From assembly GCA_934294885.1 (NCBI GenBank), contig CAKRAK010000005.1, positions 9,535-73,534 on the forward strand: 64,000 nucleotides of DNA, read 5' to 3'. Positions 3,065 through 50,341 of the stretch are shown here, in pieces (the stretch's first letter is position 1; every line of letters begins with the position of its first letter). The DNA is from an uncultured Lachnospiraceae bacterium (lineage in GTDB: Bacteria; Bacillota; Clostridia; Lachnospirales; Lachnospiraceae). The notes below the pieces were generated by a model, which saw nothing but the letters and a program-made list of their open reading frames with translations, made no database searches and was not told where the DNA came from. The position numbers and the translations under genes were made by a program.

Positions 3065-5097
3065 TAGTGACTTCTACAAGTATTTCATATGCGTCAGATT
3101 TGCAAAACGTAGCCAATGCCAAGGAGTTACTAAAACAGGTTAAGGATATATTGGATGCAGTGCCTCAGATTCGAGTGGAATTTGAGGATCCTACGGTAGA
3201 GATTACAAAAAAACATATTGTAATTGACCGGGTATTTCCAAGTGAAATCCGCAATTTTTTAAAATTGCTTTGCGATAATGACGATTTTAATTTATTTGAT
3301 GAGATTTGTGAGGCGTTGGAGGATCTTTTGAAGACGCCGACAAAGGAAGCCGAAAGGGCAGAGTTGGTTTATGTTACTCCTCCGAATGAGGAACAGCTTG
3401 CAGGTATTCAGAAATTCCTTGGAAAGGAATTTGGTAATGCTGATATTGAAATTGATCTGAAAAAGGATCCGTCTATAAAAAGCGGATTTGTGCTCCGGGT
3501 AGGAACAAAGGAATATGACTGGAGTGAAAAGGGTCGTATTGCCCAGTTGGAAAATCGGATTGCCAATGCAGTTTCTGCTACGGCAAATCGTTCCGTTAGC
3601 GAGGAAGGAATTGTCTCTATATTAAAGGCAAGTATTGATGACTTTGAGTTAGAGGCAAAAAACAAAGAAATCGGTATTGTAAACTGGGTTGGTGATGGAA
3701 TCGCCAATGTAGATGGTATCGACCATGCATTTTACGGTGAAATTGTTGTATTTGACAGTGGCGTAAAGGGAATGGTTCAGGATGTCAGAAGAGATGAGAT
3801 TGGTGTTATCCTGTTCGGTCGGGATACAGAAATCCATGAAGGCACCAGAGTTGTACGTACCGGTAAGATGGCAGGTATTCCGGTAGGAGAAAACTTTAAA
3901 GGTCGTATCGTTGATGCATTAGGTGCTCCGATTGACGGACAGGGTGAAATCGTAGCCGATGGATATCGTCCGATTGAGAATCCGGCACCGAGTATTGTTG
4001 ACCGTAAATCAGTATCGGTTCCTATGGAGACAGGTATCCTTTCTATTGATTCCATGTTCCCGATTGGACGAGGACAAAGAGAGTTGATTATCGGCGACCG
4101 TCAGACAGGTAAGACATCCATTGCCATGGATACCATATTAAATCAAAAGGGAAAAGATGTTGTTTGTGTGTATGTAGCGATTGGACAGAAGGCATCAACC
4201 ATCGCCAAGCTTGTAAATAACTTGAAGAAGGGCGGTGCAATGGATTATACCATTATCGTATCCGCTACAGCAGCAGATCCGGCACCTTTGCAGTACATTG
4301 CACCATATTCGGGAACTGCACTGGCTGAGTACTTTATGTATCAGGGAAAGGACGTGTTGATTATATATGATGACCTTTCTAAGCATGCGGTTGCATATCG
4401 TGCAATTTCCCTATTGTTGGAAAGAAGTCCGGGACGTGAAGCTTATCCGGGTGATGTATTCTATTTACATTCAAGATTGTTAGAGCGTTCTTCCCGTCTG
4501 ACGCCGGAAGCAGGAGGCGGTTCCATTACAGCCCTTCCGATTATTGAAACACAGGCAGGAGATGTATCCGCATATATTCCGACAAATGTAATTTCTATTA
4601 CAGACGGTCAGATATATTTGGAAAGTGAGTTGTTTAATGCAGGACAGCGTCCGGCTGTAAACGTTGGTCTTTCCGTATCCCGTGTTGGTGGTGCGGCACA
4701 GACAAAGGCAATGAAAAAGGCTGCCGGCTCTATACGTATTGATTTGGCTCAGTATCGTGAGATGGAAGTATTTACACAGTTTTCATCTGACTTAGATGAG
4801 AATACAAAGAAACAGTTATCTCATGGTCGTTCATTGATGGAATTGTTAAAACAGCCTCTTGGTAATCCATTTAGTATGGCGGAACAGGTTATAACATTAG
4901 TATCTGCAAATGCCCATATATTCAGTGATATGGACGCTTCCAAGGTTAAGAAATTCCGTATGGATTTATTACAGGAGTTCCATACCAATCATTCCGATCT
5001 GATTTCTCAGTTAGAGAATGCTAAGGATTTAACGGATGATATTAAGGACCGTATTGTAGATGCTGCCAAAGACTTTGTAGAACACTATGAAGGATAG
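3061..5097 (+). CDS. atpA: in-frame fusion of ATP synthase subunit delta (OSCP, about aa 1-175) and subunit alpha (about aa 180-678)
   Basis: 678 aa. The N-terminal part ends with the delta-type motif GFVLRVGTKEYDWSEKGRIAQLENRI. A short linker ANAVSATANR follows. Then comes a canonical alpha N-terminus (SVSEEGIVSILKASIDDFELEAKNKEIGIVNWVGDGIANVDG), P-loop GDRQTGKT and the rest of alpha. There is no separate atpH ORF in the operon. Confidence 0.85.
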   Translation: MIVTSTSISYASDLQNVANAKELLKQVKDILDAVPQIRVEFEDPTVEITKKHIVIDRVFPSEIRNFLKLLCDNDDFNLFDEICEALEDLLKTPTKEAERAELVYVTPPNEEQLAGIQKFLGKEFGNADIEIDLKKDPSIKSGFVLRVGTKEYDWSEKGRIAQLENRIANAVSATANRSVSEEGIVSILKASIDDFELEAKNKEIGIVNWVGDGIANVDGIDHAFYGEIVVFDSGVKGMVQDVRRDEIGVILFGRDTEIHEGTRVVRTGKMAGIPVGENFKGRIVDALGAPIDGQGEIVADGYRPIENPAPSIVDRKSVSVPMETGILSIDSMFPIGRGQRELIIGDRQTGKTSIAMDTILNQKGKDVVCVYVAIGQKASTIAKLVNNLKKGGAMDYTIIVSATAADPAPLQYIAPYSGTALAEYFMYQGKDVLIIYDDLSKHAVAYRAISLLLERSPGREAYPGDVFYLHSRLLERSSRLTPEAGGGSITALPIIETQAGDVSAYIPTNVISITDGQIYLESELFNAGQRPAVNVGLSVSRVGGAAQTKAMKKAAGSIRIDLAQYREMEVFTQFSSDLDENTKKQLSHGRSLMELLKQPLGNPFSMAEQVITLVSANAHIFSDMDASKVKKFRMDLLQEFHTNHSDLISQLENAKDLTDDIKDRIVDAAKDFVEHYEG

Positions 5098-9769: not shown

Positions 9770-10393
9770 TTAATTTAGCTGTTTGTAATAAAAACATGCT
9801 AATTGTGTTCGGTCTCTAAGCTCTAATTTTTCTAAGATATGACTGATATAATTTCTTACGGTTCCTTCGCTTAAGAACAGGCGCTCTGAAATCTCTTTGT
9901 TATTAAGACCATCCGCCACCAGTTTGATAATGTCGAAATCTTTTTGACTGAGATCAAATTCTGAAAGGGAGGGAGATAAATCCTCCTGAATCAGGGAAGG
10001 GATTTTATTCATGATTTCGTTTCCGAAAACGGACTGTCCATTGTAAACTGCGGTAATGGCAGGGGCAATGCTTTCAAAATTCTGCTTTAGGATATATCCC
10101 TTTGCTCCGATTTTTATGGCTTTGATAATATATTCATCATCGGAAAAGGTTGTCAGCAACAGGATTTTTGCCTCCGGATAGTCCTTTAGAATGGTTGTGG
10201 CAGCTTCTAAACCGTTTGTCTTTTTCATTTGGATATCCATTAGTAAGATATCGGGCTGATAGCTACGGTATAGAGAAATTGCTTCTTCTCCGTTACTGCC
10301 TTGGGCAATTACCTGAATTTCTCCCGTTGCTTCTAATATTGTTTTTAAAGAAAGTGATACCAATTGGTCATCATCTATTATGATAATTTTCAT
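9770..10393 (-). CDS. response regulator, NarL/LuxR (FixJ) family
   Basis: Receiver domain (IIIIDDD...DILLMDIQM) plus a C-terminal LuxR-type HTH (EISERLFLSEGTVRNYISHILEKL). Confidence 0.9.
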   Translation of the reverse strand: MKIIIIDDDQLVSLSLKTILEATGEIQVIAQGSNGEEAISLYRSYQPDILLMDIQMKKTNGLEAATTILKDYPEAKILLLTTFSDDEYIIKAIKIGAKGYILKQNFESIAPAITAVYNGQSVFGNEIMNKIPSLIQEDLSPSLSEFDLSQKDFDIIKLVADGLNNKEISERLFLSEGTVRNYISHILEKLELRDRTQLACFYYKQLN

Positions 10394-11505
10394 TTCTCTT
10401 CTCCTCTCAGTACAGTAATGAGTATACGGAATCCATCCTGTGTAAAAAATTTTGCTGTACCGTTCATGTTTTTTGCCCGTTCTATGATATTGGTAATACC
10501 CATTCCTGTTGAATCCGGTATGTGGATATCCGTTCCGTTATCTTCAATCAGCAGCTGATAAAATCCGGGATGTTCCCGGACAAGTACATGAAGCTTTGTG
10601 CCATTGCTGTGTTTGATACAGTTATTTACAGCTTCCTTTGTGATGGCGATAAAGGCATATTTGATGTCTGTGTTCAGATGATTGCTGATATCATAGTCTA
10701 AGGTTACTTCAAATTGGGAAGCTGTTGACAGTATATCACAAATAGCCGACTTTAAATCAATGGATTCATCATGCAGATCGTGGACACTGTTACGAATACT
10801 GGTCATGGCAGTATTTAAGGTATCGCTTAATGCATGAATTGGTTCTGTTAAAGCTTCGTCTTGGTTGATTACCAAAATGGCACCGGTTTGTAAGATAGAC
10901 CGTGTTAACAGATGACCTACATTATCGTGAATTTCTCTTGCAATTCTGTTTCGTTCCTGCAAGGTTGCGGCATAAATGGCAGTATCCTGTTCCTGACGAA
11001 GCATCTTATTATGCTTTTCTAACAGCAGTGAATGTTCTGTGCTGGTATCTCTTTGCAGGATCAGTTGTTCCTTAAGGGAGGAATCATGCCTGTAGTAATC
11101 GGAAAGAAGTATTGAAAAACAGCAAAGCAGCAACAGAACAGTAAAAGCCTGAAATCCTAATATATGATAACTCCAAAATAAATTCAATATGCATAAAACC
11201 AGAGATAATTTATATTTATAGCGATAACAGTCATACAGCAAAACCGGAAGAAAGGCAATGCTGTAAGGAACGAAAAACATAAGCAACAGCAGAATAACCG
11301 GTAAAATTTGATAGCAGTCAAATTTGACAGCGGAAGGCTTCCCTTCATGAAACGTCTGCCATATCTGTTCTGTAATGGTGTTGTTGCAGGCTGCCAATAT
11401 GGCAATAAGGCAGACAACAGTGCTTTGGGTTGTAATATGGGAAAGACGGAGATAAAAAATGGCACAGCATATGTAAATTAGTGTTTTATCCATGATCTTG
11501 TGCAT
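10390..11505 (-). CDS. sensor histidine kinase, HisKA_3 type, with a polytopic N-terminal membrane domain
   Basis: H-box ERNRIAREIHDNVGHLL and an HATPase_c region. About 5-6 predicted TM helices. Its stop overlaps the regulator start (ATGA). Confidence 0.9.
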   Translation of the reverse strand: MHKIMDKTLIYICCAIFYLRLSHITTQSTVVCLIAILAACNNTITEQIWQTFHEGKPSAVKFDCYQILPVILLLLMFFVPYSIAFLPVLLYDCYRYKYKLSLVLCILNLFWSYHILGFQAFTVLLLLCCFSILLSDYYRHDSSLKEQLILQRDTSTEHSLLLEKHNKMLRQEQDTAIYAATLQERNRIAREIHDNVGHLLTRSILQTGAILVINQDEALTEPIHALSDTLNTAMTSIRNSVHDLHDESIDLKSAICDILSTASQFEVTLDYDISNHLNTDIKYAFIAITKEAVNNCIKHSNGTKLHVLVREHPGFYQLLIEDNGTDIHIPDSTGMGITNIIERAKNMNGTAKFFTQDGFRILITVLRGEEK

Positions 11506-11696
11506 TGTTTGACCTTCCTTTCCCGGTTTCCGATTATTGTTTTCCTATTATGCAGAGGGTGTTATCTTTATGTAACACGAATAAATTATACAATCTAATG
11601 AAACCCATGGCAATTGTTATAGCAGAAAAGTGATAAATGTCACATGTAAGAACTGACTTTATTCACTTGGTTCCTTTTTGGTTTGATGTATAGTAG

Positions 11697-11913
11697 TATA
11701 TAGATAATTTCGAAACGGATACTGTTTCATACTACCTTGATATAATATATCGCAGGCACGCTTGCGCTTCATCCGCACACAGCGGTACTAAACTTGGAAT
11801 ACGCAGGTGCGATTCCTCGTTAAGTACCGGTGTGCTACAAGAGCCTGCTTATATATTATATTAAGGTAGTATGAATTGTGAGTATAGAAAAGCGTTTCGA
11901 AAATATCTATATA
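11697..11913 (+). repeat. long-hairpin dispersed repeat, copy A (core 11745-11856)
   Basis: The 112-nt core is near-identical to 24398-24509 and 50148-50260. The flanks form further inverted repeats: catactaccttgatataat / attatattaaggtagtatg and tatatagataatttcgaaacg / cgtttcgaaaatatctatata. Confidence 0.9.
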
Positions 11914-11951
11914 AAAGAATTGGAAATGTGGTAGCACAGAAAGGAACAGAT

Positions 11952-12890
11952 ATGGGTAAGGCGATAGAAGTGAAAAATCTGGTAAAACGGTATAAGGATT
12001 TACTGGCTTTGGATCATTTGAATCTTGAAGTCAATGAAGGAGAAATTTTTGGGCTGTTAGGTCCAAACGGTTCCGGAAAAACAACAACCATTAACTGTAT
12101 ATTATCCCTGCTTACTTACGATAAGGGAGAAATCAGAGTATTTGGAAAGGAAATGAAACCGGACAGCTACGACCTGAAAAAAGACATCGGTATTGTAATG
12201 CAGAATGTAGCGGTATTTGATGAGTTGACGGTTTATGAAAATATAGATTATTTCTGTGGACTGTATATAAAGGATAAAGTGTTAAGAAAGGAATATGTAG
12301 AGGAAGCAATTGCTTTCGTTGGGTTGGAGGATTATAAAAAAATGCACCCGAAAAAGCTATCCGGCGGTCTGCTTCGAAGGTTAAATATTGCCTGTGGAAT
12401 CGCCCATAAGCCGAAGCTGATTTTCTTGGATGAACCTACGGTTGCTGTGGATCCCCAAAGCCGGAACAAAATTCTGGAAGGAATCGAATCCCTAAATAAA
12501 AATGGTGCAACCATTATTTATACTTCCCATTATATGGAAGAGGTTGAGCAGATCTGTACCCGTATTGCAATTATGGATAAAGGAAAGAAAATTGCAGTGG
12601 GAACTACAGACGAACTGAAAGGAATGATAAAGAATACAGAGAAAATCCGGGTAGAGGTATTGGGACTGGAAGAAGAAAATCTTCTTGCATTAAAGGAACT
12701 ACCCCATGTTTATGAGACTACCTATGAAAATGGCATACTGAATCTTTATTATGCAGGGGGAACCCATAATCTTGTCAGGGTGTTGGATTATTTCCAAAAA
12801 GAAAATATCAGTTTTGGAAGAGTTTATTCCGAACTGCCTACATTGAATGATGTATTTCTTGAGATTACGGGAAAGGAATTAAGAGATTAG
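11952..12890 (+). CDS. ABC transporter ATP-binding protein (ABC-2 type system)
   Basis: Walker A GPNGSGKTT, signature LSGGLLRR, Walker B LIFLDEPT. The ATG at 11952 follows RBS AAAGGAA. The ORF extension back to 11871 lies inside the hairpin repeat. Confidence 0.9.
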   Translation: MGKAIEVKNLVKRYKDLLALDHLNLEVNEGEIFGLLGPNGSGKTTTINCILSLLTYDKGEIRVFGKEMKPDSYDLKKDIGIVMQNVAVFDELTVYENIDYFCGLYIKDKVLRKEYVEEAIAFVGLEDYKKMHPKKLSGGLLRRLNIACGIAHKPKLIFLDEPTVAVDPQSRNKILEGIESLNKNGATIIYTSHYMEEVEQICTRIAIMDKGKKIAVGTTDELKGMIKNTEKIRVEVLGLEEENLLALKELPHVYETTYENGILNLYYAGGTHNLVRVLDYFQKENISFGRVYSELPTLNDVFLEITGKELRD

Positions 12891-12906
12891 GATTGGAGGA
12901 AGAGAT

Positions 12907-14034
12907 ATGTTTGTACATAATTTTAAATATGCATTAAAATCCCTATTCCGGAATAAAACAACCATGTTTTGGACTCTGATCTTTCCGATTGGACTTACAA
13001 CATTTATGTTTATGGCATTTCATGATCTGATGAAAAAAGAAGAAATGATGGAAGTAATTCCGGTTGCCGTGGTGGATTATCAGGATGGGGAAAATGGATT
13101 GCTGAATGTTCTGGAGATTTTGTCGGAGGGGGACGATCCTGTACTTAGGATTAAAAAGACGGATGAGAAAAAGGCAAAGCAGTTATTGCAGGATAAAAGT
13201 GTTGAGGCAATCATTGATGTTGCGGATATTCGTCTGGTCGTAAATGAAAATGGTTATAATGCCCTTGTTTTACAGGTTATATTAGAACAATATAAACAGA
13301 AGGAAAATATTGTAAAAGATATTTTGAAAACCAATCCCGGGCTGCTTCCCTCAGTTGCGGAGAGCATAGGGAAGAATCCCTCTTATTACGTAGAACAACG
13401 CACTTCGGACTCCAATCAGGATCAATACAACAATTATTTTTATGCGATTTTTGCCATGGCATGTTTGTTTTCTTCTTTTGTTGCAGTAGAGCGGATTGGA
13501 AGGATTCAGGCAAATGTAAGTCCGTTGGGAATGAGAAGGTGTCTGTCCCCTAATCCTAAGTTTGTGGTGATTGTGTCTGAATATCTGGCATTGTTAATGG
13601 TTCAGTTTGCTATAGAAGTGATTACCCTGATCTATATGACTATTTTGGGAATTGATTTTGGTAATCAATATCCGGCTATTTTGTTGATTCTGCTCCTTGG
13701 CTGTAGTATCGGATTGTCCATGGGAGTCATTATAGGTTCCGTTTCAAAAATGAACGAGGCGGGAAAGACCGGTCTGGCGGCATCCGTTACCATGATCTTA
13801 TCCGTAATGGCTGATTTGTGTACCGGGGGAATTAAAGATATGGTGGAACATAATTTCCCGATTTTAAATCGTATCAATCCTGCTGTTTTGATTTCCGACA
13901 GTTTTTATGCCTTGAACGTATATGATAATTATACAAAGTATTTTCAAAATATTGGAATTATGGCGGCGATGTCGATTTTGCTGGTGATTATCAGTTCATT
14001 TATTTTAAGGAGGAACAGGTATGCAAGTGTTTAA
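12907..14034 (+). CDS. ABC-2 family transporter permease
   Basis: N-terminal TM helix, a large extracytoplasmic loop, then five C-terminal TM helices. It immediately follows the ATPase gene. Confidence 0.8.
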   Translation: MFVHNFKYALKSLFRNKTTMFWTLIFPIGLTTFMFMAFHDLMKKEEMMEVIPVAVVDYQDGENGLLNVLEILSEGDDPVLRIKKTDEKKAKQLLQDKSVEAIIDVADIRLVVNENGYNALVLQVILEQYKQKENIVKDILKTNPGLLPSVAESIGKNPSYYVEQRTSDSNQDQYNNYFYAIFAMACLFSSFVAVERIGRIQANVSPLGMRRCLSPNPKFVVIVSEYLALLMVQFAIEVITLIYMTILGIDFGNQYPAILLILLLGCSIGLSMGVIIGSVSKMNEAGKTGLAASVTMILSVMADLCTGGIKDMVEHNFPILNRINPAVLISDSFYALNVYDNYTKYFQNIGIMAAMSILLVIISSFILRRNRYASV

Positions 14035-15172
14035 GGCGTATTTTAAGGTGTTGAATCAATATAAAGGCTCTGTTATCCGATATATTACTATTTTTGTAAT
14101 CATATTATATTTTTTCATTGTTCCGGCTTTGGCAGAAAGTGATAATCAGGACTATGTTGAAAAAAAGTGTACATTTACGGTATTTGATTATGACAATAGC
14201 CAGGCAAGCAAAGGTGTCATTGATTACCTTTCAAAAAGAAATACATTAGTAGAAATCAAAGCAGATGAAAAAGAAGTGATTCAGGATGAATTGTACTATC
14301 GGAATATTGTATGTGCCCTTCGGATTCCAAAGGGATTTGAACGTCATTTAAAGGAAGGAACGGCGGAAGATTTCTTAGAGGTTGTAACCATTCCGGGAAC
14401 TCGGGCTTCCGCTGCTTTTGAAACGCAGCTGGACGGGTGCTTAAGTGCAGTTGCTACTTACATAGATGCGGGATTTTCCGTCTCGGAAGCCATGGAAAAG
14501 GCAGAGAAGGCGTTAGATGTCAATGTGGAGGTATCCTTGTCGGATGGAGGGGATGATACCGTCCATACAGGCAGGTACTATTATTATAATTATCTGGCAT
14601 GGGTTTTAATGTGTGTCATGATAGAGGGTATCAGTCCCTGCTTATTGGTGTTTTCAAGGGACGAGATGAAAAAAAGAATGGAATGTTCGGCATATCGTTT
14701 TTCCCGTTTTAATAAAGAACTGATGCTAAGTGTTTTTGTATCGGGGTTGATGATATGTGGAGTTTTTGTACTGGTATCTGTGGCAGGGTTTAAGAATGAG
14801 ATGCTGAATGTTTCCGGATTGCTGAATATCATCAATATGCTGTGTTATATGTTGGTGGCATTGGCAATCGCATTTTTAATCAGCAGATTGCTTCACAGAG
14901 TGGATTTGCTGGCAATGGTATCCAATATTATTTCTCTTGGAATGGCATTCCTTTGCGGTATTTTTGTCCCGAGGCAATTTTTAGGTGATAACATTGTAAA
15001 GGTTGCCCATTTCCTTCCGGCATACTGGTATAGCGAAGCTGTTACGGCATTGGATCGTTATACATCCGGGATGCTGCCGGATATCATGAAGTATATGGGC
15101 GTAGAGCTGTTGTTTGCAGTTGTGCTTGTTGTACTGGCTCTTGCTATTTCAAGAAAGCAACAGATGAAGTAA
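14021..15172 (+). CDS. ABC-2 family transporter permease (second subunit)
   Basis: Same topology as the preceding permease. Overlaps it by 14 nt. Confidence 0.8.
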   Translation: MQVFKAYFKVLNQYKGSVIRYITIFVIILYFFIVPALAESDNQDYVEKKCTFTVFDYDNSQASKGVIDYLSKRNTLVEIKADEKEVIQDELYYRNIVCALRIPKGFERHLKEGTAEDFLEVVTIPGTRASAAFETQLDGCLSAVATYIDAGFSVSEAMEKAEKALDVNVEVSLSDGGDDTVHTGRYYYYNYLAWVLMCVMIEGISPCLLVFSRDEMKKRMECSAYRFSRFNKELMLSVFVSGLMICGVFVLVSVAGFKNEMLNVSGLLNIINMLCYMLVALAIAFLISRLLHRVDLLAMVSNIISLGMAFLCGIFVPRQFLGDNIVKVAHFLPAYWYSEAVTALDRYTSGMLPDIMKYMGVELLFAVVLVVLALAISRKQQMK

Positions 15173-24315: not shown

Positions 24316-24350
24316 AATAAATTCCTTTCTGTAATGCAAGTAATACCGGT

Positions 24351-24558
24351 AATCGCGAAACGCTTTTTCCTTTATAATTTGTGCAAATTTAATATGGATA
24401 TATCGCAGGCACGCTTGCGCTTCATCCGCACACAGCGGTACTAAACTCGGAATACACTAACGTTTTTCCTCGTTAAGTGCCGGTGTGCTACAAGAGCCTG
24501 CTTATATATCATATTAAATTTTGCACAATGATATAGTTTACTAAGCGTTTCGCAAATT
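24351..24558 (+). repeat. long-hairpin dispersed repeat, copy B (core 24398-24509)
   Basis: Same core as copies A and C. Arms ttgtgcaaatttaatatggatatat / atatatcatattaaattttgcacaa, and basal stem aatcgcgaaacgc / gcgtttcgcaaatt. Confidence 0.9.
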
Positions 24559-24762
24559 CTAAGCAGAATTATGTGATCTAAGTTAATTTTACAATTACCT
24601 GTATAACATAGTATATAAGTGGGGAAAAATCAAGGGATATGAAAAAACTCCGTTTTTGAAATAATAACTGGCATGGTTAAAATAATAAAAACTGGATGTT
24701 TTGACCATGCCAATGTTGGGTTATAATGCAGCGAAAAGAAGGAAAGAGAGGATTATGAAAAA

Positions 24763-36916: not shown

Positions 36917-37573
36917 ATGTTTACAGGTATTGTTGAAGAATTAGGAACGGTAGTTTCCATCAGTAAGGGTACAAAATCCTCGAAACTGACATTACAGGGT
37001 GATGTCATTTTTGAGGACATGAAGCTGGGAGATTCCATTGCGGTAAATGGAGTCTGTCTTACGGTTACGGAAAAAACAGCAAACACCTTTACGGTAGATG
37101 TAATGGCGGAAACATTACGAAGGTCTTCCCTTGGCAATTTGTCAAAGGGAGGAAAAGTAAATATGGAGCGTGCCATGGCAGCAAACGGCAGGTTTGGAGG
37201 ACATATCGTAAGCGGACATATAGACGGAACCGGAACCATTGAAAGCTTTGTTCAGGAGGATAATGCCACATGGGTGACGATTACAACCTCCGGTAAAATT
37301 TTAAAATATATAATTGAGAAAGGTTCCATTACAATTGATGGTATATCCTTAACGGTGGCGTATGTGGATAACAGATGCTTTAAAGTGTCGCTGATTCCTC
37401 ATACAGCAGCCAATACAACGTTGCTTATGAAAAAGGCTGGAGATATTGTTAACTTAGAGAATGATATTATCGGAAAATATGTAGATAAGCTGTTAGGATA
37501 TCAGGGAGAAGAGGAATCCGGAACATCTTCAAAGGTGTCCATGAATTTCCTTGCAGAGAATGGTTTTATCTAA
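36917..37573 (+). CDS. ribE: riboflavin synthase (alpha chain)
   Basis: MFTGIVEELG N-terminus and a duplicated lumazine-binding repeat (GDSIAVNGVCLTV / GSITIDGISLTV). Confidence 0.9.
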   Translation: MFTGIVEELGTVVSISKGTKSSKLTLQGDVIFEDMKLGDSIAVNGVCLTVTEKTANTFTVDVMAETLRRSSLGNLSKGGKVNMERAMAANGRFGGHIVSGHIDGTGTIESFVQEDNATWVTITTSGKILKYIIEKGSITIDGISLTVAYVDNRCFKVSLIPHTAANTTLLMKKAGDIVNLENDIIGKYVDKLLGYQGEEESGTSSKVSMNFLAENGFI

Positions 37574-50074: not shown

Positions 50075-50098
50075 ATTTGACCACTGCGTTTAACAGGT

Positions 50099-50308
50099 AA
50101 TTGCAAAACCCATGCAACCTTCCTTTATTTGTGCAAAATTTAATATGATATATCGCAGGCACGCTTGCGCTTCATTCCGCACATAGCGGTACTAAACTTA
50201 GGATGCGCTTACGCTTTCCTTCGTTAAGTACCGATGTGCTACCAGAGCCTGCTTATATATCATATTAAATTTTGCACAATTAATGACAATCCAAAGGGTT
50301 TTGCAATT
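50099..50308 (+). repeat. long-hairpin dispersed repeat, copy C (core 50148-50260)
   Basis: Same core as copies A and B. Arms ttgtgcaaaatttaatatgatatat / atatatcatattaaattttgcacaa (perfect), and basal stem aattgcaaaaccc / gggttttgcaatt. Confidence 0.9.
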
Positions 50309-50341
50309 CCCTGACAGAGCTTAAATCGGAAAGGAGTAAAG

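Follow-up and report, generated by a model that had tools for sequence, protein, structure and literature searches.

Correia elements (CREE or NEMIS) of Neisseria, which measure 100–155 bp and duplicate a TA at the target, are gene-less, multicopy sequences in the 100–300-bp range that have terminal inverted repeats and form long hairpins. They insert near the starts of genes and are transcribed as part of the mRNA leader. ERIC/IRU, BOX and RUP repeats of enterobacteria and Streptococcus pneumoniae are likewise imperfect palindromes that are intergenic and lie in transcribed regions, and the movement of RUP is ascribed to an IS630-type transposase, with duplication of a TA. Invertons, among them the invertible promoters of Bacteroides and the cwpV and flgB switches of C. 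difficile, consist of a short segment, upstream of genes and bounded by inverted repeats, that occurs in both orientations in nature. The IS4 family generates target duplications of ~10–13 bp (subgroups IS231, ISH8 and IS4) (PMC2266710, Table 1), which is about one helical turn. This family (for example IS231 and MIC231 of the Bacillus cereus group) also has non-autonomous derivatives bounded by the terminal repeats of the parent.

The element described here occurs in three copies in the window, by which we mean the whole 64,000-nucleotide stretch of Lachnospiraceae DNA that was analysed, and belongs to a previously undescribed family in uncultured gut Lachnospiraceae. We put the probability at roughly 80% that this is a new family of non-autonomous, fully palindromic (“foldback”) miniature inverted-repeat transposable elements (MITEs), and not a gene-specific RNA. 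The original prediction, made from the letters of the window, had likened the repeats to Correia/RUP/BOX-type miniature elements or to a cis-acting structured RNA. The first likeness is borne out by terminal repeats, target duplications, empty sites, dispersed copies and breaks in assemblies.

Exact matching finds three copies of the 22-mer CGCAGGCACGCTTGCGCTTCAT in the 64-kb window, all on the + strand and against a chance expectation of zero, and the 3′ block of the element likewise occurs three times. Profile searches, one with the core and one with the whole element, return just these three copies in the window, with no degenerate extras, in agreement with the exact search and with the number first reported. 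A 112-nt core had been taken as the repeating unit; the real unit is the whole element, which is 209–220 bp long in the window and 197–284 bp across the family. Each copy (A, B and C) is predicted to form a single long interrupted hairpin of ~100 bp, with ~100 paired positions, as had been proposed. Predicted folding energies range from −79 to −99 kcal/mol, with z-scores of −9.8 to −13 against dinucleotide shuffles (−12.1 for copy A). There is no real gene inside the copies in the list of window open reading frames (ORFs), the ORF at 11871 being merely an upstream extension of the ATPase frame. Proteins encoded in the window match only metagenome-assembled genomes (MAGs) labelled Lachnospiraceae.

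From the outside in, the element consists of a terminal inverted repeat, an AT-rich spacer, an inner inverted repeat and an asymmetric core with a variable apex. The terminal inverted repeats span 17–20 bp and have the consensus TAGRCGTTTGCGAAAC; they read TAGRCGTTTGCGAAAC(K)CAT at both ends in the relatives from the MAG LOHA42 and from contig L060, and each of the three window copies has diverged versions at its two ends. Each copy has two spacers, of 8–21 nt, which are poorly conserved. The inner inverted repeats are 22–25 bp long across the family and 25 bp in the window copies. They enclose a conserved, asymmetric core of ~100 nt, whose outermost helix, P1, is GCAGGC/GCCTGC. Inside P1 come a 3-nt bulge, a short CTTG/CAAG helix, a ~10-nt bulge on one arm only (CGCTTCATCC) and then P2. 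The P3 helix carries a conserved A·A mismatch, with CTAAA/CTAAG on both arms. The apex ranges in length from a 12-nt hairpin up to two extra hairpin modules (~100 nt, in L008).

Copy A, complete on the + strand at 11701–11909 (209 bp), is delimited by the profile envelope, by the fold and by sister species that do not have it. Its left terminal repeat, TAGATAATTTCGAAACG (11701–11717), is homologous to TAGRCGTTTGCGAAAC and pairs with the right one, CGTTTCGAAAATATCTA (11893–11909). The arms of its inner repeat (11726–11750 and 11851–11875) enclose the core (11751–11850), in which P1, the bulges, the CTTG/CAAG helix, P2, P3 and the apex are all recognisable. The sequence TGATATAAT, pointed out earlier as −10-like, is indeed present at 11738–11746, within the left inner arm. 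Copy B (24348–24561, + strand, 214 bp; profile envelope 24346–24561) has the terminal repeats GGTAATCGCGAAACGC on the left and GCGTTTCGCAAATTCTA on the right, inner arms at 24379–24403 and 24504–24528, and a core at 24404–24503. Copy C (50094–50313, + strand, 220 bp) has CAGGTAATTGCAAAACCC and GGGTTTTGCAATTCCCTG as its left and right terminal repeats, and its inner arms, TTGTGCAAAATTTAATATGATATAT at 50129–50153 and the right arm at 50255–50279, form a perfect 25-bp repeat around a 101-bp core (50154–50254). The outer and basal helices that had been listed for the three copies are present.

The copies bear the marks of insertion. Exact direct repeats abut the element termini, which in LOHA42 were set by alignment of the copies: 11 bp in L002 (ACTACAAATAT), 10 bp in L005 (TTACATCATA) and 11 bp in L008 (TGTATTTTCTT). 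The member in L060 has an 11-bp duplication in which 9 of 11 positions match. Exactly at the predicted junctions of window copies A and C, degenerate duplications with 8 of 11 positions identical are found, namely TATAGTAGTAT (11689–11699) and TATAAAAGAAT (11910–11920) around copy A, and ACTGCGTTTAA (50083–50093) and ACAGAGCTTAA (50314–50324) around copy C. The earlier statement that no direct target duplication is visible thus holds for copy B, at whose junctions none is recognisable, but not for copies A and C, nor for the relatives with exact repeats of 10–11 bp. A polymorphic copy in L049 has no clear target duplication either, only 0–3 bp. Since insertion duplicates 10–11 bp of AT-rich target DNA, the cut is staggered.

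Unoccupied sites complement the duplications. Two sister species, whose ATPases are 87–88% identical to that of the window, have no element at locus A, and their spacer between the HK and ATPase genes is 233 or 190 nt versus 446 nt in the window. Locus C is empty in LOHA42, which has a syntenic GGDEF-marR-ABC-ABC arrangement with a marR-ABC spacer of 42 nt; removing element C and one copy of its duplication from the window leaves a spacer of 36 nt. The L008 copy is absent from the sister contig L058, and its excision restores a normal leader length. The divergent member in L049 is missing from L050 and L051, which are of the same species. The features by which MITEs are recognised were therefore found together: small size, no coding capacity, shared terminal inverted repeats, abutting target-site duplications, and dispersed copies with filled and empty sites. 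The copies also break MAG assemblies at the element ends. No transposase flanked by these terminal repeats was seen in the window, in the loci examined or among the IMG/VR matches, and it had been noted at the outset that neither transposase nor recombinase is visible, which is so for the window ORFs and the loci checked.

In a scan of one genome per species, a 21-mer of the core was found in two MAGs only. Lachnospiraceae LOHA42_bin.042 has at least nine copies, of which six lie no more than ~100 nt from a contig end, and a Hadza MAG has one. A diverged member of 197 bp was found by synteny in L049, and a scan of IMG/VR for the terminal repeats yielded the contig L060, with a 224-bp member that has the same terminal repeats and a diverged core; a second candidate from that scan, L059, was dismissed as a chance match in coding DNA. 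A looser terminal-repeat scan of IMG/VR returned 30 loci, with the repeat pair in L060 alone and no autonomous element. Neither the core 21-mer nor the P3 hairpin pattern matched anything in IMG/VR, BLAST of copy A found no match in plasmid and phage collections, and a pattern for the 3′ side found none in JGI metagenomes. Four 19-mer matches in JGI metagenomes were set aside as chance occurrences in GC-rich coding DNA. Literature searches on invertons or MITEs in Lachnospiraceae returned nothing relevant, and the core sequence is absent from those supplementary files of the hCom2 inverton survey (PMC11892184) that were searched.

Outside the window, the genes next to the element are unrelated to one another: a MocR regulator, a Na/Ca exchanger, DUF1015, MTHFR, an SSF symporter, a carboxyltransferase and cobalamin genes. 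The flanks are unrelated housekeeping genes, and the orientation of the element relative to them is mixed. Insertions are intergenic and often 10–45 nt upstream of a ribosome-binding site; those in L002, L005, L008, L009, L010 and L060 are roughly 10–30 nt from one. These leader-proximal positions indicate that the elements tend to occupy leaders. In the window, copy B is located between a pyridoxal-kinase-like gene (− strand) and an ECF S-component gene (+ strand), and copy C between the marR and ABC exporter genes of one operon, its right end ~17 nt upstream of a ribosome-binding site.

Copy A lies immediately to the right of a promoter-like pair, TTGGTT (11667–11672) and TATAGT (11689–11694) spaced by 16 nt, whose −35 and −10 positions as the ABC-2 promoter were assigned from an alignment with sister species; the same comparison shows a conserved palindrome, GTGATAAATGTCAC, at 11630–11643. 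The left target duplication of copy A overlaps the putative −10 box TATAGT of the ABC-2 operon. By this assignment, copy A would sit between the promoter of the ABC-2 operon, which is of the resistance type, and its ribosome-binding site, at about +1 of the transcript, and would be read as part of the leader; being downstream of the putative promoter, it is probably transcribed. It had been described as an element of the 5′ region of this operon. The leader position does fit, but the element is an insertion there and not a native regulator.

A rival reading casts the ~210-nt hairpin as a cis-acting structured RNA, a leader by which transporter operons would be regulated, whether as a riboswitch, a protein-binding leader or a processing site. 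In its favour, every window copy lies upstream of transporter genes and on their coding strand, the folds are very stable, the covariation is significant, and the putative promoter to the left of copy A makes its transcription probable. Yet sister species carry the ABC-2 and marR-ABC operons without the element, copies elsewhere adjoin unrelated genes in either orientation, core orientation varies between strains at loci A and C, and target-site duplications mark the copies as insertions. The Rfam search that had been suggested matched no family to the element: at the gathering threshold the window yields the FMN riboswitch alone, and the locus, searched with E-values up to 10, gives nothing but generic hairpin models far below threshold. 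Randomly oriented copies or a match to a MITE end had been named as outcomes that would speak against the original prediction, and mixed orientation together with terminal repeats and duplications is largely what was found. Empty sites and mixed orientation largely refute the cis-RNA reading, and we regard it as extremely improbable.

The pattern of substitution in the stems also weighs against it. The covariation that had been noticed between copies is real: across nine distinct cores from five subfamilies, 9 of 26 core pairs show two-sided changes, a level reached by none of 500 shuffles, and structures slid by 1–3 columns give 0–1 two-sided pairs. Stem changes altered both sides in 15 cells versus one side in 3. 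Nearly all of them lead from one Watson-Crick pair to another, with very few G·U intermediates. The complementary strand folds as well as or better than the one originally considered, and both strands fold about equally well overall, neither being consistently more stable; G·U pairs number 37 on the complementary strand versus 14. Watson-Crick changes, equal stability of the strands and the lack of an Rfam model together favour complementarity at the DNA level over a strand-specific RNA. In the foldback MITE reading, the hairpin and its covariation would reflect the foldback architecture itself, and complementarity could be kept in the DNA by selection among element lineages or by correction of one arm templated by the other.

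Conservation between copies and between species is far higher in the core and inner repeats than in the spacers, and the ~10-nt bulge and the A·A mismatch persist through subfamilies whose stems covaried. Such a pattern is not predicted for a MITE that simply decays neutrally. Judged from the sequence comparison, the conservation and the persistent asymmetries make it likely that the core serves the element or the host in some way. Read in either direction, the core contains neither a sigma-70-like promoter nor an intrinsic terminator. Three further candidates were rejected: inward- or outward-facing sigma-70 promoters in the repeats or spacers, of which none is consistent across copies; a sigma-54 promoter in the conserved GGCACG..TTGC block, which has the wrong spacing as judged by eye; and a small ORF on the complementary strand (MKRKRAC...), which lacks a ribosome-binding site and has no conserved counterpart in L049 or L060.

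A core read as a single-stranded hairpin, with its bulges and mismatch recognised by an HUH/Y1 transposase or a tyrosine recombinase in the manner of IS200/IS605-derived PATEs, REP/RAYT systems or the attC sites of integrons, would explain the conserved asymmetry, which a DDE transposase would not. It would also account for an extrahelical bulge and an A·A mismatch that are conserved despite covarying stems. The variable terminal structure resembles that of attC sites, GTTAAGT fits GTTRRRY, and the L049 insertion has no clear duplication. However, the element has clear terminal inverted repeats and 10–11-bp duplications, and IS200/IS605 elements and attC recombination are not known to produce either. 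The GTTRRRY-like motif adjoins the apex, not the outer ends as in attC, and the ORFs and neighbour genes scanned include no integron integrase, cassette array, TnpA or RAYT. We consider this explanation very unlikely.

Comparison of strains revealed that the centre of the element is rearranged. Bases 50154–50254 of copy C are present as the exact reverse complement, between identical flanks, in L034–L038; the core is likewise flipped in L090–L093, and the flipped junction is also present in two short contigs, L041 and L042. The flipped form amounts to 11 contigs from several studies and falls into two strain clades that are 1.1–1.4% diverged, and the forward form is found in one clade of 4 contigs (the window, L039, L040 and L043). 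Both copy C junctions were recovered from one run, ERR7747140, as assembled consensus contigs, and both are forward. At locus A, at least nine contigs have a different allele between unchanged flanks. The core of this second allele (L016 type) is on the opposite strand, and because its inner repeats and one spacer differ too, we rejected a simple inversion as the relation between the two alleles. The + strand shared by the window copies, which had been put forward as a common trait, is thus not one of the family, given the flipped core of copy C and the oppositely oriented allele at locus A in other strains.

Deletions are seen as well. In L026, locus B has lost its inner repeats and core and has kept its terminal repeats and spacers; this was considered as the clean empty site of an independently mobile inner module and rejected, the junction fitting a deletion at TTTG microhomology. 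L044–L048 carry a solo terminal-repeat remnant with the centre deleted. An exact flip, a replaced inner module and a deleted centre among strains only ~1% diverged mark the element as a hotspot of structural variation, and the flippable 101-bp centre is its one unusual feature. Breaks in Logan contigs were considered as a sign of mixed orientation within samples and set aside, repeat collapse at k=31 being sufficient to explain them.

A flipping centre raises the question of a programmed inverton, in which the inner 25-bp repeats would be the sites of a site-specific invertase encoded elsewhere and the 101-bp core, as a directional leader, attenuator or promoter for example, would switch the flanking genes ON and OFF within a population. 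In copy C, inverted repeats do enclose a segment that occurs both ways round: the core is exactly reverse-complemented between perfect 25-bp repeats and the 101 bp are otherwise identical. The core is directional and conserved, copies lie in leaders or between the genes of operons, where orientation could matter, and core orientation differs between strains at locus A also. Against this, the orientation of copy C follows haplotype clades, and on an unrooted tree of three clades one flip event is enough, so the copy C flips do not demonstrate phase variation. Relative orientation is uniform elsewhere: all eight canonical LOHA42 copies share one core-to-spacer orientation, the copy B core has the same orientation in all nine contigs that carry it (L024, L025 and L027–L033), and each locus A allele is seen in one orientation only. 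The inner repeats differ among copy A, copies B and C, the L016-type allele and the LOHA42 copies, and so offer no common recombinase site. The core, as described above, lacks a promoter or terminator to be switched, and there is no recombinase among the 30 window ORFs and the 10 genes adjoining LOHA42 copies that were scanned. To our knowledge, described invertons are ~150 bp or longer, and the 101-bp core is shorter. A programmed inverton thus seems unlikely.

The foldback MITE reading suggests a mechanism in which a DDE transposase encoded elsewhere would move the element in trans. The length of the duplication is suggestive of an IS4-family-like enzyme, an assignment that stays tentative given that the ends are unlike the published signatures of this family. 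By analogy with Correia, ERIC and BOX, the elements may be co-transcribed into mRNA leaders as long hairpins, and any effect on neighbouring genes would be a by-product. Recombination between the inner repeats, or template switching from one to the other, could have produced the flip at copy C.

A bolder extension would see in the element a portable, self-contained orientation switch, whereby transposition places a directional core in leaders and operon spacers, and flips, made by a recombinase or by hairpin-templated strand switching, alter the expression of the adjoining gene. It would explain the conservation of the core and inner repeats, the survival of the bulges and the A·A mismatch, and the occurrence of both orientations in nature. 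We think it improbable, at about the level of the programmed inverton. Frequent flipping, if it occurs, would make the family a mobile phase-variation cassette, a kind of element previously undescribed. The foldback MITE reading has practical consequences of its own: these ~200-bp blocks break assemblies of gut Lachnospiraceae MAGs, and they should not be mistaken for riboswitch-like leaders. Copies that add a long double-stranded RNA leader absent in sister species are also natural experiments on the tolerance of leaders to insertion.

Set beside the described systems, the element fails as an inverton, as an attC site, as a PATE and as a member of any Rfam family. With the Correia elements it shares gene-less multicopy organisation, size class, terminal inverted repeats, long hairpins and placement close to gene starts; this comparison is by description and not by sequence. 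It differs from them in its 10–11-bp duplication and its length of 197–284 bp, and in being palindromic over its full length, with nested repeats and a centre that is flipped between strains. ERIC, BOX and RUP are palindromic and intergenic as it is; they have different hosts, and we know of no sequence motif that they have in common with it. BOX is modular, with a variable number of internal units, and the apex of the present element has 0 to 2 extra hairpin modules (L008); RUP is set apart from it by the duplication, which is 10–11 bp here. A target duplication of about one helical turn likens the element to the IS4 family, but its ends are unlike the published signatures of that family (CAT... 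or -AATR...) (PMC2266710), and what lies between them is a foldback palindrome, neither a cassette nor the product of a simple internal deletion. Unlike those of invertons, its invertible segment has no recognisable promoter or terminator and no nearby invertase, and its repeats differ between copies. The orientation of copy C tracks clades, and the whole structure lies inside a transposable element with target duplications.

Decayed and diverged relatives of the element, a palindromic repeat of the MITE type, occur in sister species. In five contigs (L044-L048) of one sister species, a solo terminal repeat, TAGGTATTTGCGAAACACAT, is followed by a fragment of an inner repeat and adjoins the start of the kinase gene (for example at 9800-9819 in L044); this is a decayed copy with an internal deletion, lying in the same intergenic region at a different position. 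A diverged family member of 197 bp occupies approximately positions 3875-4071 of L049; of three assemblies of this species, L049 carries it and L050 and L051 lack it. Its target duplication is not clear (0-3 bp), whereas duplications elsewhere in the family are 10-11 bp.

Copy A lies within a locus of divergent gene groups (window 9770-15172), one encoding a HisKA_3 kinase together with a GerE-type response regulator, the other an ABC-2 ATPase with two ABC2_membrane_3 permeases, an arrangement that resembles LnrJK/LnrLMN of B. subtilis. The palindrome GTGATAAATGTCAC (11630-11643) is probably the operator of the response regulator, since it is kept in sister species (L044 and L049), as is a promoter-like -35/-10 pair. 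Beside copy B, an inverted repeat conserved across strains, CTGGCATGGTTAAAAT...TTTTGACCATGCCAAT (~24672-24718), lies between the element and an ECF S-component gene (24763) and may be the operator of that gene. Elsewhere in the window, a full-length FMN riboswitch (RF00050; 34908-35038, + strand, 101.8 bits) precedes a riboflavin operon (from 35332) that includes a lumazine-binding protein (36917-37573).

The scans of IMG/VR yielded a 224-bp family member at 1857-2080 of L060 (IMGVR_UViG_3300029696_000215), which shares the family's terminal repeats but differs from it in the core, and whose 11-bp duplication is identical at 9/11 positions. It lies ~25 nt upstream of a ribosome-binding site, and the product of the gene begins MAKVGIVMG. 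The host contig is classified as viral; it may be bacterial or a prophage flank. Another sequence, TGGACGTTTGCGAAACTCAT, recurs in many IMG/VR contigs (L061, L062, L067-L069, L078, L080, L081, L084, L086 and L087), and because no paired repeat accompanies it in any of these, it is probably conserved phage coding sequence with no relation to the element.

The apex of the copy in L008 holds two extra hairpin modules (3303-3480), each with CTAAG on both arms, and the truncated copies in L003 and L007 begin the same apex variant. Because these modules are similar to the P3 hairpin, the apex looks like a modular expansion, its repeated hairpins being comparable to boxB units.
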